Shown here: in pieces, positions 18,213 through 26,618 of the stretch
How the letters are laid out: every line of letters begins with the position of its first letter
Numbering within the stretch: position 1 is the first letter of the stretch
Origin: Escherichia phage FL23
Length of the DNA stretch: 64,000 nt
Sequence record: PP400787
Direction: 5' to 3' (one strand)
The notes under the pieces: generated by a model
What the model was told of the DNA's origin: nothing
The model's database searches: none
Seen by the model: the letters and a program-made list of their open reading frames with translations, nothing else
Position numbers and translations under genes: made by a program

Positions 18213-19228
18213 TAATTGAGGCCTGAGTATAAGGTGACTTATACTTGTAATCTATCTAAACGGGGAACCTCTCTAGTAGACAATCCCGTGCTAAATTGTA
18301 GGACTGCCCTTTAATAAATACTTCTATATTTAAAGAGGTATTTATGAAAAGCGGAATTTATCAGATTAAAAATACTTTAAACAATAAAGTATATGTAGGA
18401 AGTGCTAAAGATTTTGAAAAGAGATGGAAGAGGCATTTTAAAGATTTAGAAAAAGGATGCCATTCTTCTATAAAGCTTCAGAGGTCTTTTAACAAACATG
18501 GTAATGTGTTTGAATGTTCTATTTTGGAAGAAATTCCATATGAGAAAGATTTGATTATTGAACGAGAAAATTTTTGGATTAAAGAGCTTAATTCTAAAAT
18601 TAATGGATACAATATTGCTGATGCAACGTTTGGTGATACATGTTCTACGCATCCATTAAAAGAAGAAATTATTAAGAAACGTTCTGAAACTGTTAAAGCT
18701 AAGATGCTTAAACTTGGACCTGATGGTCGGAAAGCTCTTTACAGTAAACCCGGAAGTAAAAACGGGCGTTGGAATCCAGAAACCCATAAGTTTTGTAAGT
18801 GCGGTGTTCGCATACAAACTTCTGCTTATACTTGTAGTAAATGCAGAAATCGTTCAGGTGAAAATAATTCATTCTTTAATCATAAGCATTCAGACATAAC
18901 TAAATCTAAAATATCAGAAAAGATGAAAGGTAAAAAGCCTAGTAATATTAAAAAGATTTCATGTGATGGGGTTATTTTTGATTGTGCAGCAGATGCAGCT
19001 AGACATTTTAAAATTTCGTCTGGATTAGTTACTTATCGTGTAAAATCTGATAAATGGAATTGGTTCTACATAAATGCCTAACGACTATCCCTTTGGGGAG
19101 TAGGGTCAAGTGACTCGAAACGATAGACAACTTGCTTTAACAAGTTGGAGATATAGTCTGATCTGCATGGTGACATGCAGCTGGATATAATTCCGGGGTA
19201 AGATTAACGACCTTATCTGAACATAATG
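18213..19228 (+). mobile_element. group I self-splicing intron in td (1016 nt) carrying I-TevI
   Basis: P1/IGS gcctgag pairs with exon end cttgggt; core motifs gtagggtcaagtgactcgaaa and atatagtctgatctgcat; ends ...ctgaacataatg. Confidence 0.9.
18344..19081 (+). CDS. I-TevI: I-TevI GIY-YIG homing endonuclease (intron ORF)
   Basis: 245 aa; GIYQIKNTLNNKVYVGSAKDFEKRWKRH; C-terminal Zn finger and DNA-binding domain. Confidence 0.9.
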   Translation: MKSGIYQIKNTLNNKVYVGSAKDFEKRWKRHFKDLEKGCHSSIKLQRSFNKHGNVFECSILEEIPYEKDLIIERENFWIKELNSKINGYNIADATFGDTCSTHPLKEEIIKKRSETVKAKMLKLGPDGRKALYSKPGSKNGRWNPETHKFCKCGVRIQTSAYTCSKCRNRSGENNSFFNHKHSDITKSKISEKMKGKKPSNIKKISCDGVIFDCAADAARHFKISSGLVTYRVKSDKWNWFYINA

Positions 19229-22260: not shown

Positions 22261-23239
22261 TTATGAATTTGTAGATGAATTTTACGAAGATGATGAGTAT
22301 ACTACAATAAAAGTTATTGAAAACAAGGGAGAAGTGGGGCTTTGTACTCTCTCTGCATTCGTACTAGATAATTTTGACTGGCAAGACCAAGATAAAATTA
22401 ATGAATTGGCAGAAGTTCAAGTTCGTGCTCTTGATAATCTTTTGGATTACCAAGGATATCCAGTTCCTGAAGCAGAAAAAGCTAAAAAGCGTCGTAACCT
22501 TGGTGTAGGTGTTACTAACTATGCAGCTTGGCTGGCAAGTAACTTTGCTTCTTATGAAGATGCTAACGATTTAACACATGAACTATTTGAGAGATTACAG
22601 TATGGACTCATTAAAGCATCCATTAAGCTCGCCAAAGAAAAAGGACCTTGCGAATATTATTCAGACACTCGTTGGTCTCGAGGCGAACTACCTATCGACT
22701 GGTACAATAAAAAGATTGACCAAATCGCAGCTCCAAAATACGTTTGTGACTGGTCGTCGCTGCGGGAAGACCTTAAGCTCTTTGGCATCCGTAATAGCAC
22801 ATTATCAGCACTTATGCCATGTGAGTCATCTTCCCAAGTTTCTAACAGTACAAACGGTATCGAGCCTCCACGTGGACCGGTAAGTGTTAAAGAATCAAAA
22901 GAGGGTTCATTTAATCAAGTTGTTCCGAATATTGAGCATAACATAGACCTTTACGACTATACATGGAAATTAGCTAAGAAAGGTAATAAACCTTATCTTA
23001 CGCAGGTAGCTATTATGCTGAAATGGGTATGTCAATCGGCTTCAGCGAATACATATTATGACCCACAGATTTTTCCAAAAGGAAAGGTTCCAATGTCAAT
23101 AATGATTGATGATATGCTATACGGATGGTATTATGGCATTAAAAATTTCTATTATCATAATACCCGCGATGGTTCTGGTACTGATGATTATGAAATAGAA
23201 ACTCCAAAAGCAGATGATTGTTCATCCTGTAAATTATGA
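22250..23239 (+). CDS. nrdA: ribonucleotide reductase large subunit, C-terminal piece (nrdA-b)
   Basis: Own ATG; resumes at GLCTLSAF (second active-site Cys) and runs to the C-terminal DDCSSCKL redox tail. Confidence 0.85.
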   Translation: MNIDYEFVDEFYEDDEYTTIKVIENKGEVGLCTLSAFVLDNFDWQDQDKINELAEVQVRALDNLLDYQGYPVPEAEKAKKRRNLGVGVTNYAAWLASNFASYEDANDLTHELFERLQYGLIKASIKLAKEKGPCEYYSDTRWSRGELPIDWYNKKIDQIAAPKYVCDWSSLREDLKLFGIRNSTLSALMPCESSSQVSNSTNGIEPPRGPVSVKESKEGSFNQVVPNIEHNIDLYDYTWKLAKKGNKPYLTQVAIMLKWVCQSASANTYYDPQIFPKGKVPMSIMIDDMLYGWYYGIKNFYYHNTRDGSGTDDYEIETPKADDCSSCKL

Positions 23240-24848
23240 TATAATTACCACAAGGATGTGGTTAACTAAGAATAACGCTATGTTTGATAATATATACAAA
23301 AACGGAAAGTTTCTTCCATTTGGAGAAGAAAAACTTAAATCTAGACTAACAGAAGAAGATAAAGCTCTTCTAACTGATGGAATAGATTTTAAGCTCAATG
23401 TGTTCCAAATTATGGAAGGCATTGACATTAACGATCTAAAATGTGCAGTTTGTGGAAATTTCATTTCTCTGAAAACGGCAAAGAAACGTGTATTTCCAGC
23501 AACATGTAGTAAATCCTGCGCAGGGATATTTTTCGCGGATAAGAGAATTCAAAGCCGTGATACAAATTTTGGCGGAAAAGAAAAATATAAAAAATATTTG
23601 TCTGAACTTCAACGCAAAAATTCTTTAGAAAAATATGGAACAACTCATCAAAAAATTTCAAGAAATAAAAATAGAAAAACTTTAATTGAACGATATGGGG
23701 TAACGCATAATTCACAATTAGAAAGTGTGAAAGAAGCGAGAAAAGTTATAGAAAACGGTAAATCAGTTGATATTCTGAATTCTAGAAAATCTCGCGAAAA
23801 ATCTAAGAAGACTAAATTAAATTGGACTGAAGAATATAAGGCATCGTTATATTCATCTATAGGAAAATCTATTAAAAATAACGGTCATATTAATCATGAT
23901 ATACTAGATAAAATCAATTACAAAATTTCTATAGAAGAACTACAACAATTAGCAAATTGTTCTCGGATGACGGCTTATAGAGCTCTTTCATCCAAAGGAC
24001 TAATTGACGTTCATTATACTCAAAGTTCTATAGAGCAATTCATTTTAGATCTAGGATTTGATTGCGTAGAAACTAGAAAAATTATTCCTCCGTATGAATT
24101 AGATATTTACATTCCTGAGAAAAAATTGGCTATAGAATACGATGGAATTTATTGGCATTCTAGCGGGTCAAAGGAAACAGATAAAATTAAAGAAACTTAT
24201 CATTTGATGAAGACAGAGATGTGTGAAGCACAAGGAATTCAATTACTTCACATCTTCGAAAATGAATGGATTGATGATACAAAAAGAGAGATCTGGAAAT
24301 CCATTATAAAGCATAAATTAGGATTATCAGAAAGAATACCAGCCCGAAAATGCAAAGCGCGTTTTGTTAATAAGGATGAGGCAAAAGAATTTATTAATAA
24401 GAATCATCTTCAAGGATTTTGCTCGGGAGCTCATACGTATAAAGGACTTTATTACAATAATGAGTTAGTTCAAATTATTTCTATCGGTAAATCTAGATAT
24501 AGCTCAGGTGATGAACTTTTAAGGATGTGTTCAAAATTAGGGATTTGTGTTGTAGGAGGAGCCTCAAAATTATTAAAAGGAATTAATTGTCTATCTTATG
24601 GCAATCGAAGATGGTGCAGTACATTATCAAATGTTTATGACTCTGTCATGGAATTTAGTCATATCTCTGAGCCGTGTTATTGGTATGTCGATAAAGGAGA
24701 GGTATTTCACCGCTCGAGCTATATGAAACATAAGCTTAAAAACAAGCTTAAAAATTATGATGATACAATAACTGAAGTAGAAAATTGTTATGCAAATGGT
24801 CTTAGAAGAATCTGGGACTGTGGAAATTTAGTTTACAGGACAAAATAA
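23214..24848 (+). CDS. large multi-domain putative nuclease (Zn ribbon, repeated YG(T/V)TH motifs, Vsr/DUF559-like core, C-terminal domain)
   Basis: CAVCGN...CSKSC; EKYGTTHQ/ERYGVTHNSQ repeats; LAIEYDGIYWH...LLHIFENEW; start ambiguous (23214, 23256 or 23280). Confidence 0.55.
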   Translation: MIVHPVNYDIITTRMWLTKNNAMFDNIYKNGKFLPFGEEKLKSRLTEEDKALLTDGIDFKLNVFQIMEGIDINDLKCAVCGNFISLKTAKKRVFPATCSKSCAGIFFADKRIQSRDTNFGGKEKYKKYLSELQRKNSLEKYGTTHQKISRNKNRKTLIERYGVTHNSQLESVKEARKVIENGKSVDILNSRKSREKSKKTKLNWTEEYKASLYSSIGKSIKNNGHINHDILDKINYKISIEELQQLANCSRMTAYRALSSKGLIDVHYTQSSIEQFILDLGFDCVETRKIIPPYELDIYIPEKKLAIEYDGIYWHSSGSKETDKIKETYHLMKTEMCEAQGIQLLHIFENEWIDDTKREIWKSIIKHKLGLSERIPARKCKARFVNKDEAKEFINKNHLQGFCSGAHTYKGLYYNNELVQIISIGKSRYSSGDELLRMCSKLGICVVGGASKLLKGINCLSYGNRRWCSTLSNVYDSVMEFSHISEPCYWYVDKGEVFHRSSYMKHKLKNKLKNYDDTITEVENCYANGLRRIWDCGNLVYRTK

Positions 24849-25523
24849 TGAGTACAGTTTTTAATACTAAACAGGTCGATGTTTTAAAAGAACCTATGTT
24901 TTTTGGTTCAGGTCTTGGTATTGCGCGTTATGATATTCAACGGCATCGAGTATTTGAAGAACTTATTGAACGTCAGCTCTCGTTTTTCTGGCGTCCTGAA
25001 GAAGTAAACTTGATGATGGATGCTGCACAGTTTAATAAGCTTCCTCAGTATCAACAAAATATTTTTACTAATAATCTGAAGTATCAATCATTACTTGATA
25101 GTATTCAAGGTCGTGCGCCGTCTGCTGTACTTATGCCATTGCTTTCAGACCCAAGCCTTGATACATGGGTTGCTACATGGACTTTTAGTGAAACTATTCA
25201 CAGTCGTTCATATACTCATATCATGCGAAATCTTTATACTGATCCGTCAAAGGTATTTGATGAGATTGTATTAGATGAAGCTATTATGAAACGTGCTGAA
25301 TCTATCGGTCGTTATTATGATGATGTTCTGACTAAAACCCGTGAATGGGAAAATGCTAAAGAATTTGTAGAACTAGCTAAAGAATCTCCTGATGCCGACT
25401 TTCGTTTAAACCGAGCTATTAAACAAGAAGCCGAAGCTAAACGTGCTTTAATGAAATCTCTTTACCTCTGTTTGCACGTTATTAATGCCTTAGAAGCTAT
25501 TCGTTTTTATGTATCTTTTGCGT
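24848..25523 (+). CDS. nrdB: ribonucleotide reductase small subunit, exon 1
   Basis: LKEPMFFG...RYD...QLSFFWRPEEV...WAFSETIHSRSYTHI...FYVSFA; 5' splice site inferred after gcgt (P1 gcgu/gcgc). Confidence 0.8.
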
Positions 25524-26115
25524 AAAATGCGCCTTTAAACGGTAACGTTTATCGAAAACTCCTTTAATTGCTGGAAAGTCCTTTATAGGAAAACTAGCAG
25601 CCAAGGTTTTGCTTGCACCTTTAATTAGTATAATATGATTATACTTTTAAGAGGATGCACAATTGAACTATAGAAAAATTTGGATAGATGCTAACGGACC
25701 TACCTAAAGATTCTGATGGAAGACCATAAGAAAAGAACATCAGCAAAAACATTAGAAATGGTTAAGAATGGGACCCATCCTGCACAAAAAGAAATCACAT
25801 GTGATTTCTGCGGTCACATTGGTAAAGGTCCTGGATTTTATCTAAAACATAATGACAGATGTAAATTAAATCCAAATAGAATTCAATTGAATTGTCCATA
25901 TTGTGATAAGAAAGATTTATCACCATCAACATATAAACGATGGCACGGCGACAATTGCAAAGCAAGGTTCAACGACTAGTCTTCGGACGTAGGGTCAAGC
26001 GACTCGAAATGGGGAGAATCCCTCTGGGATTGTGATATAGTCTGGTCTGCATAGTAATATGTAGCAGTTCATAAGAGAACGGGTTGAGAATTAGCGAGCT
26101 CAATCGAACATAACG
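25524..26115 (+). mobile_element. group I intron in nrdB (about 592 nt; boundaries inferred, +/- a few nt)
   Basis: Core motifs gtagggtcaagcgactcgaaa and atatagtctggtctgcat shared with the td intron; splice restores FYVSFA-C-TFNF...MEGNAKIM. Confidence 0.75.
25716..25979 (+). CDS. intron ORF, likely a truncated I-TevIII-like endonuclease remnant (Zn-finger region only, 87 aa)
   Basis: CDFCGH...CPYCDK...WHGDNCKARF; no complete HNH/GIY-YIG catalytic motif seen. Confidence 0.55.
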   Translation: MEDHKKRTSAKTLEMVKNGTHPAQKEITCDFCGHIGKGPGFYLKHNDRCKLNPNRIQLNCPYCDKKDLSPSTYKRWHGDNCKARFND

Positions 26116-26618
26116 GTACCTTTAACTTCCATAAAAACATGGAAATCATGGAAGGTAATGCCAAGATTATGAAGTTCATTGCACGTGATGAGCAGCTTCA
26201 TCTTAAAGGTACACAATATATTATTCGTCAACTTCAATCTGGTACTGATGGCGATGAATGGGTTAAAATTGCTCAAGAGTGCGAGCAAGAAGCAGTTGAT
26301 ATTTTCATGGAAGTTAACCGCCAAGAAAAAGATTGGGCAGTTCATTTATTTAAAGATGGCGATGTTCCTGGATTAAATACAAATAGCATGTGGAGCTTTA
26401 TTGATTACTTAACTGTATCTCGTATGAAACAGTGTGGTCTTCCATGCCCAATTACCGATGCTCCGGTTAAACACCCATATCCTTGGATTCGTGAATATCT
26501 TAATTCTGATAATGTTCAATCCGCGCCACAAGAAGTAGAACTGTCATCTTACCTTGTTGCGCAGATTGATAATGATGTTGATGATAAAGTTATGATGAGT
26601 TTTAAAAAATACTTTTAA
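26116..26618 (+). CDS. nrdB: ribonucleotide reductase small subunit, exon 2
   Basis: ...MEGNAKIMKFIARDEQLHLKGTQ...SSYLVAQID; aligns with class Ia NrdB C-terminus. Confidence 0.8.

Follow-up and report, generated by a model that had tools for sequence, protein, structure and literature searches.

Genomic context of the nrdB locus

The window, a 64,000-nucleotide stretch of Escherichia phage FL23 (PP400787), holds part of a T-even (Tequatrovirus) genome in which nrdA, a 544-aa ORF, nrdB in two pieces, denA and rnlA follow one another in the T4 arrangement. Between the two pieces of nrdB lies a group I intron with a remnant of the homing endonuclease I-TevIII, and the 544-aa ORF upstream is hef (Table 1). 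Positions 25400-26250 are 100% identical to Escherichia phage FL44 (PP400790.1).

The window's hef shares 99.3% nucleotide identity with its counterpart in phage U5 (AY262133.2), where the gene was first described. Its product belongs to phrog_3339, 'homing endonuclease' (E 7e-152), and the same gene is labelled 'Hef-like homing endonuclease' in SG1 and N2. Pfam adds a weak match to REase_MTES_1575 (22 bits; cut-off 38). The gene occupies the place of mobE and nrdB.1, which T4 carries between nrdA and nrdB, and its stop codon overlaps the nrdB start (ATGA).

Exon 1 of nrdB contains a hypervariable, indel-rich segment at 25363-25444 (approximately residues 172-199), about 80-160 nt upstream of the intron. 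The versions in T4, in the window together with RB3, and in U5 are mutually unrelated, E. coli R2 has a gap there, and the flanks are nearly identical. The segment could be a scar of recombination or co-conversion, or a variable endonuclease target.

Table 1. Features of the hef-nrdB region, numbered from the first base of the window
Feature	Coordinates	Strand	Description
hef, free-standing homing endonuclease between nrdA and nrdB	23214-24848	+	544 aa
nrdB exon 1	24848-25523	+	225 codons and the first base, T, of a split Cys codon; from the ORF listing and the T4/RB3 nrdB alignment
Group IA2 intron of T4 nrdB type, predicted to self-splice	25524-26115	+	592 nt; insert defined by the intron-less allele
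P1	25520-25532	+	exon GCGU with guide GCGC, loop AAAAU; U25523.G25529 wobble at the 5' splice site
P2 hairpin	25536-25551	+	UAAACG-GUAA-CGUUUA
P3, 5' strand	25559-25564	+	CUCCUU, pairs with GGGGAG at 26011-26016
P4 around P5	25569-25599	+	P4 UGCUGG/CUAGCA; P5 hairpin UCCU-UUAU-AGGA
P6/P6a, 5' strand	25600-25617	+	pairs with 25956-25968; closes the ORF-bearing loop
RBS-sequestering hairpin	25618-25654	+	sequesters the old I-TevIII RBS, AAGAGGA (25649-25655)
Vestigial I-TevIII 5' end	25663-25707	+	TTG start and 13 codons (MNYRKIWIDANGPT), then TAA; from the RB3/T4/U5 alignment
Remnant ORF	25716-25979	+	87 aa, I-TevIII residues 183-269; two zinc fingers and dimerisation region, HNH absent
P6a/P6, 3' strand	25956-25968	+	
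P7	25974-26042	+	GACUA 25974-25978 with UAGUC 26038-26042; encloses P7.1, P7.2, P3 3' strand and P8
P7.1	25979-25988	+	GUC-UUCG-GAC, UUCG loop
P7.2	25992-26005	+	GGGUC-AAGC-GACUC
P3, 3' strand	26011-26016	+	inside P7
P8	26018-26030	+	inside P7
Peripheral 3' domain	26047-26105	+	P9 26047-26064 (GUAA loop), P9.1 26067-26080, P9.2 26082-26105
Terminal guanosine (omega-G)	26115-26115	+	3' splice site
nrdB exon 2	26116-26618	+	GT completes the Cys codon; stop codon included

Intron boundaries and the spliced product

Both splice sites can be fixed to the base. The exon 1 ORF ends in TTT TAT GTA TCT TTT GCG T, the FYVSFA plus one extra T reported in the first-pass annotation, and the intron opens with AAAATGCGCC. 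At the other edge, ACATAACG ends the intron at 26115 and GTACCTTTAAC begins exon 2, in the frame GT ACC TTT. The intron begins with A and exon 2 with G, exon 1 ends in T and the intron in G, so the boundaries have no room to slide.

Intron-less alleles delimit the insert. A synthetic exon 1-exon 2 sequence, run as a query against phage records, gives a single unbroken match in many T-even phages. The intron-less allele reads TTTGCGT/GTACCTTT (slash, junction), and the extra segment in the window is 592 nt exactly; in the intron-less phage HEMP5, the nrdB site reads TCCTTTGCGT/GTACCTTTAAC.

The joined exons form a 1179-nt ORF of 392 aa with no internal stops and with FYVSFA-C-TFNFHKNMEIMEGNAKIM at the junction. 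Homologous boundaries in related phages yield introns of 598 nt (T4), 1091 nt (RB3) and 1083 nt (U5). The T4 product spliced in this way equals RIR2_BPT4 from the first to the last residue, and the RB3 and U5 products agree residue for residue with the NCBI nr NrdB entry EFD7934047.1 and with AAP86735.1, an NrdB deposited as a joined CDS. These exact matches, together with the intron-less allele, establish the start of exon 2 at 26116, as the first-pass annotation had proposed. That annotation also expected the restored cysteine to fit the class Ia NrdB pattern, and the alignment with E. coli R2 agrees. The spliced protein matches 1piy_A over residues 3-388 (E 2e-128), unbroken across the junction, where the aligned stretches include FYVSFACTFNFHKNMEIMEGNAKIM; Pfam Ribonuc_red_sm matches it with E 9e-37. 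The split codon aligns with C214 of R2 and lies between the codons for the iron ligands E204 and E238 (E. coli R2 numbering). The predicted junction in the spliced RNA is UUUGCGU/GUACCUUU (GCGU/GUACC).

An intron of 592 nt had earlier been set against about 598 nt for T4, with a caution that the inferred ends could lie a few nt away. Both lengths are correct and the caution is unfounded: the 6-nt difference is a real sequence change inside the intron. It is the sum of four indels relative to T4: the P5 loop gains 1 nt (+1), the hairpin loop loses 6 (-6), the ORF stub loses 2 (-2), and 1 nt is gained before the 3' splice site (+1).

Group I identity and RNA structure

Alignment with the T4 and RB3 nrdB introns, named earlier as a check, places all three at the same insertion site with 97.0% identity to T4 and 98.0% to RB3; the U5 intron likewise shares the site and high identity. 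The excised segment ends in G26115, and its removal restores the nrdB frame exactly. The identity values, the score of the ORF-excised core and the covariation described below uphold the reading as an nrdB group I intron.

Rfam at its gathering threshold returns no match in the whole window. The default search misses both introns there, in nrdB and in td, because their endonuclease ORFs interrupt the covariance model. With E-value reporting, RF00028 (curated gathering cut-off 50 bits) aligns to 25824-26064 at 34 bits (E 8e-7 on 851 nt), with the 3' core placed correctly and the 5' half of the model forced into the ORF. The nrdB intron falls below the cut-off because of the 290-nt ORF in its P6 loop. 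The td intron (18213-19228, 1016 nt), which carries an intact 245-aa I-TevI ORF at 18344-19081, scores 42.5 bits at 18950-19180, also below 50. Naturally ORF-less nrdB introns score 69.1 bits (SP21535, E 1e-16) and 68.6 bits (other alleles, 304 nt, E about 1e-16), and an intron-less nrdB locus gives no match to RF00028. When the ORF is cut from the window intron at the ACAATTG repeats, the result is identical to the 300-nt SP21535 intron; the window core therefore passes the curated threshold.

Structurally, the intron contains the P3-P6 and P7-P9 parts of a group I core, with the R and S elements GACUA and UAGUC, and P3 and P7 cross to form the pseudoknot. The IA2 hallmark, P7.1 and P7.2 between the 5' strand of P7 and the 3' strand of P3, is present. 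P1 pairs exon positions 25520-25523 with intron positions 25529-25532, just as the gcgu/gcgc pairing had been drawn before; it is short, at 4 bp. P10 was sought by pairing the P1 loop (AAAAU) with the start of exon 2 (GUACC), and no convincing helix emerged. Natural ORF-less alleles retain exactly the P6/P6a helix, and the RBS-sequestering hairpin folds at -17.6 kcal/mol. Folded by minimum free energy with no constraints, the mini-intron reproduces 66 of the 83 nested pairs.

Every one of the 88 proposed pairs is standard in the window, and comparison of alleles supports them further. When eight alleles that differ from one another (window, T4, RB3, G8, AV114, SG1, DCP80 and S16) are aligned, pairing holds in 99.7% of cells, and compensatory changes on both sides occur at nine pairs. 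Three of these are among the six pairs of P2 (in SG1, DCP80 and S16), one is in P5 (U-A to A-U or G-C), one in the RBS-sequestering hairpin (A-U to G-C in SG1), one in P7.2, one in P9 and two in P9.2; P7.2 additionally has a G.U to A-U change. Column shuffling reached the observed pairing and compensation values in 0 of 500 trials, and sliding the partners by 1-3 columns lowered pairing to 38-44% with no compensatory pairs. P1, P3, P4, P6, P7, P7.1 and P9.1 are invariant among the nrdB alleles and so uninformative in that alignment, and the sole variation in P8 is one C-G to U.G change. In the td and T4 nrdD introns, P3, P7.1, P8 and P9.2 lie at equivalent places with other sequence and are still complementary.

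One P6a pair, 25612/25962, is C-G in most alleles, including the window and RB3; in T4 a G-to-A change on the 3' strand leaves a C.A mismatch, and this helix is therefore paired less well in the T4 reference intron than in other alleles. DCP80 is the other mismatch-bearing allele among the eight, and FL18 and Manna share the G-to-A base.

The nrdB introns of T4 and RB3 are known to self-splice (literature in PMC2790892 and PMC1865063). Near-identity to the T4 and RB3 introns suggests that the window intron also undergoes guanosine-dependent self-splicing.

The I-TevIII remnant

The 87-aa ORF matches positions 184-269 of phrog_12324, the 269-position I-TevIII profile (E 5e-60), which bears out the earlier description of it as the zinc-finger part of a decayed homing endonuclease. 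It also matches positions 11-97 of phrog_27406, the profile of the 97-aa T4 remnant; a Pfam search with it finds no match. Both zinc fingers of the I-TevIII C-terminal region are present, of the form CX2C...HX3C, at C29/C32...H45/C49 and C60/C63...H76/C80. Their cysteines correspond to C211/C214 and C242/C245 of I-TevIII, which bind zinc and are required for DNA binding (PMC1865063), and the ORF contains the dimerisation region, mapped to residues 194-241 (PMC1865063). The N-terminal HNH catalytic domain is missing: approximately residues 20-182 are deleted, corresponding to about 490 nt relative to RB3, between the imperfect direct repeats GAAGAACA and GAAGACCA. The junction falls at 25718/25719, the same as in T4. 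The terminal codons of the ORF overlap the 3' strand of P6, J6/7 and the 5' strand of P7.

The base at the deletion junction is A in T4 and C in the window and the other aligned T4-type alleles; in the right-hand repeat, full-length S16 has A and RB3 has C. On this ground the deletions in T4 and the window could be independent events; a single event on different backgrounds explains the difference equally well. Substitutions among remnant-ORF alleles are too few for dN/dS.

The expression signals of the enzyme have also decayed. In the N-terminal stub, a 2-nt deletion that turns CCTATACC into CCTACC shifts the frame, and translation from the old RBS and TTG start (25649-25665) would stop after 14 codons. 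Compared with T4 and RB3, the hairpin loop has lost 6 nt and with them TATAAATA, present in both; a search of the window intron for this motif found no copy. TATAAATA is the T4 late-promoter consensus. The intron thus carries neither a late promoter nor an RBS and start that lead into the enzyme. Late promoters and RBS hairpins are known to control intron endonucleases, and U5 has an alternative I-TevIII hairpin (PMC2988022).

An alternative to simple decay is that the 87-aa ORF is kept for a function, as an inactive dimer that sits on the nrdB homing site or on an operator in the intron. Such a protein could protect against or interfere with the I-TevIII of co-infecting phages, or repress transcription. 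The retained fingers and dimerisation region are compatible with it, as is the occurrence of the identical 87-aa sequence on 14 contigs, including G8 (QBQ80106.1). Re-initiation is conceivable, given that the stub stops 8 nt before the ATG of the ORF, and an autorepressor role has been proposed for I-TevIII itself (PMC2988022). However, some natural introns have lost the whole ORF (300-309 nt) or its first finger (SG1), and FL18 and ESh36 have a 1-nt frameshift just past its ATG. The late-promoter motif is missing, and the one good RBS is sequestered and belongs to the 14-codon stub. In vitro, moreover, the 194C fragment of I-TevIII does not bind DNA, and the minimal binder, 166C, is longer than the ORF (PMC1865063). 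With the empty Pfam result added, a retained function is improbable, and we continue to regard the ORF as the residue of a dead endonuclease.

Intron alleles and a possible link to hef

The nrdB intron occurs in 128 phage records, against 665 records that match the exon junction. Its alleles fall into full-length forms (about 1085-1094 nt), forms with the T4-type deletion (587-599 nt), an SG1 type (420 nt) and ORF-less forms (300-309 nt). The ORF-less introns measure 300 nt in SP21535, 304 nt in PD112, BYEP01 and CE1, and 309 nt in DCP80 and CJY920; they occupy the window intron's site and have its core, with the whole ORF deleted between ACAATTG direct repeats. AV114 has another right-hand breakpoint, between AAGAACA repeats, which implies that internal deletions arose more than once. 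At least four natural I-TevIII deletions lie at short direct repeats, namely GAAGAACA/GAAGACCA, AAGAACA, AGAT and ACAATTG; introns produced by the four deletion types are about 590, 592, 420 and 300-309 nt long.

Sixteen phage records, representing 14 phages, contain hef. A decayed nrdB intron is found in 13 of these phages, one (N2) has no intron, and none has an intact I-TevIII. The introns are 592 nt in FL44, G8, FL18 and F26, 590 nt in FL12, about 591 nt in LH2 and about 595 nt in Lv5cm; the others measure 587 nt (ESh36), 599 nt (Manna), 420 nt (SG1), 300 nt (SP21535), 309 nt (CJY920) and 1083 nt (U5, with a frameshift). At least five lesions are represented: the 2-nt frameshift of U5, the T4-type deletion, the FL12 variant, the SG1 deletion and complete loss of the ORF. 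Phage N2 (ON645936.1) combines hef with an uninterrupted 1179-nt nrdB. It shows that hef and the intron are separable, and it rules out the notion that a decayed intron accompanies hef in every case.

Cleavage of nrdB by Hef has been reported (PMC2988022), and in T4 the adjacent MobE acts in trans to mobilise the intron along with its defunct I-TevIII (PMC2790892). Tentatively, the window allele might mark a step in a natural series of decay that is tied to the adjacent hef. If that doubtful link holds, the intron is now propagated by a neighbouring free-standing endonuclease and its own enzyme has come under weaker selection as a result, which would extend the trans-homing model drawn from T4 mobE.

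Proposed pathway and remaining alternatives

With a probability of roughly 96%, judged from sequence comparison, 25524-26115 is a T4-family nrdB group IA2 intron that splices to give full-length NrdB, in which I-TevIII is dead and which would persist through inheritance and Hef. By orthology with the T4 and RB3 introns, for which self-splicing is experimental, the pre-mRNA would fold into the P1-P9.2 core. Exogenous guanosine bound at P7 would attack the phosphate after U25523, in the U.G pair of P1, and the freed 3'-OH of exon 1 would then attack after the terminal G26115. Ligation as GCG-U/GU-ACC would restore the Cys codon, and the product would be the 392-aa NrdB.

In the decay of the enzyme, the deletion of about 490 nt between direct repeats took out the HNH domain, the 2-nt deletion shifted the frame of the stub, and the 6-nt deletion took away the late-promoter motif TATAAATA. 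From these three losses it follows that the intron is unable to home by itself. Its persistence is most probably explained by vertical inheritance and by co-conversion driven by the adjacent Hef, in parallel to trans homing by MobE in T4. Hef-initiated gene conversion would be the likeliest route by which such a non-autonomous intron spreads; against Hef-driven trans homing stands N2, with its hef beside an intron-less nrdB.

T4 nrdB is not essential on normal hosts. This leaves room for the view that the intron is a relic that no longer splices and that the phage lives on host NrdB. That view is very improbable: outside the ORF and the hairpin loop, the core is base for base that of the RB3 intron, which is reported to be mobile and functional (PMC1865063), every helix is intact, and the two exons, under obvious purifying constraint, form a complete ORF together. 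Least credible of all is a truly split nrdB whose two polypeptides assemble without RNA splicing, like the mobE-split nrdA of phage Aeh1, where an RNR built from separate fragments is known (PMC3045599). The FL44 record, with two 'ribonucleotide reductase beta subunit' CDSs and four small minus-strand ORFs between them, would suit this. Against it, the intervening 592 nt are a conserved, covarying group I core precisely missing from intron-less alleles, and the second annotated CDS, which begins at the internal Met (26148), would drop residues conserved with E. coli R2. The orthologues in T4 and U5 carry annotations for splicing at this junction, which for T4 has also been shown.

Annotation and significance

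The nrdB intron, the defective endonuclease of T4, its intact version in RB3 and hef of U5 are already known, and the window allele or near-identical ones are already in GenBank, often unannotated. The practical value of the present analysis lies in annotation, since FL44 and several other records split nrdB. For the stretch equivalent to window 24848-26618, FL44 (PP400790.1) gives nrdB as two CDSs and leaves the intron and I-TevIII unannotated. Four small minus-strand 'hypothetical proteins' are called inside its intron, and FL12, FL18 and ESh36 are treated likewise; these minus-strand ORFs are spurious. The set of alleles, which includes full-length, frameshifted and ORF-less forms and three different internal deletions, offers a natural illustration of homing-endonuclease decay inside a ribozyme that is probably still functional.

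Comparison with known introns

The 598-nt T4 nrdB intron (X04140, NC_000866) shares the insertion site with the window, after GCGU and, following the terminal G, before GUACC, as well as the IA2 core. T4 and the window also have in common the deletion junction that joins GATG to GAAGA(A/C)CATAAG and removes the HNH domain. They differ in P9, which has A-U and G.U pairs in the window and two G-C pairs in T4, and in P6a, with C-G in the window and C.A in T4. The remnant ORF is 87 aa in the window and 97 aa in T4, and the neighbouring endonuclease gene is hef in the former and mobE in the latter.

The 1091-nt RB3 intron is identical to that of the window in its core outside the ORF and the hairpin loop, and exon 1 is of the same type. 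Unlike the window, RB3 has the full 269-aa endonuclease with HNH domain and zinc fingers and retains TATAAATA; its intron homes autonomously (PMC1865063). U5 (AY262133.2) resembles the window in its hef, its 6-nt shorter hairpin loop and its core. In contrast to the window, its 1083-nt intron has no large deletion, and I-TevIII was killed by a 2-nt frameshift in the HNH region; the variable segment of exon 1 differs too.

Beyond the T-even phages, an ATPase gene of the marine, N4-like Pseudoalteromonas phage pYD6-A (NC_020849.1) is interrupted by a group I intron (1148-1590), and its record gives a joined CDS. Over 87-89 nt, the P9-P9.1-P9.2 region of this intron shares 86.5% identity with the 3' domain of the nrdB intron (window positions of about 26025-26113), and it scores 23 bits on RF00028. 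This common peripheral domain suggests either common ancestry or exchange of a module between the pYD6-A and nrdB introns.

The td intron of the window and the nrdD intron of T4 are paralogous IA2 introns that resemble the nrdB intron in the sequences of P7, P7.2 and P9 and in helix layout. Two motifs that the first-pass annotation described as common to nrdB and td, GTAGGGTCAAG(C/T)GACTCGAAA and ATATAGTCTGNTCTGCAT, are indeed found in the td intron. Each occurs twice in the window, at 25989 and 26035 in nrdB and at 19100 and 19151 in td, against approximately zero expected by chance. The td and nrdD introns differ from the nrdB intron in their host genes, in their P1-P6 sequences and in their endonucleases, namely I-TevI as well as I-TevII, which are of the GIY-YIG type, and the nrdD intron carries its ORF at a different position from that of nrdB.
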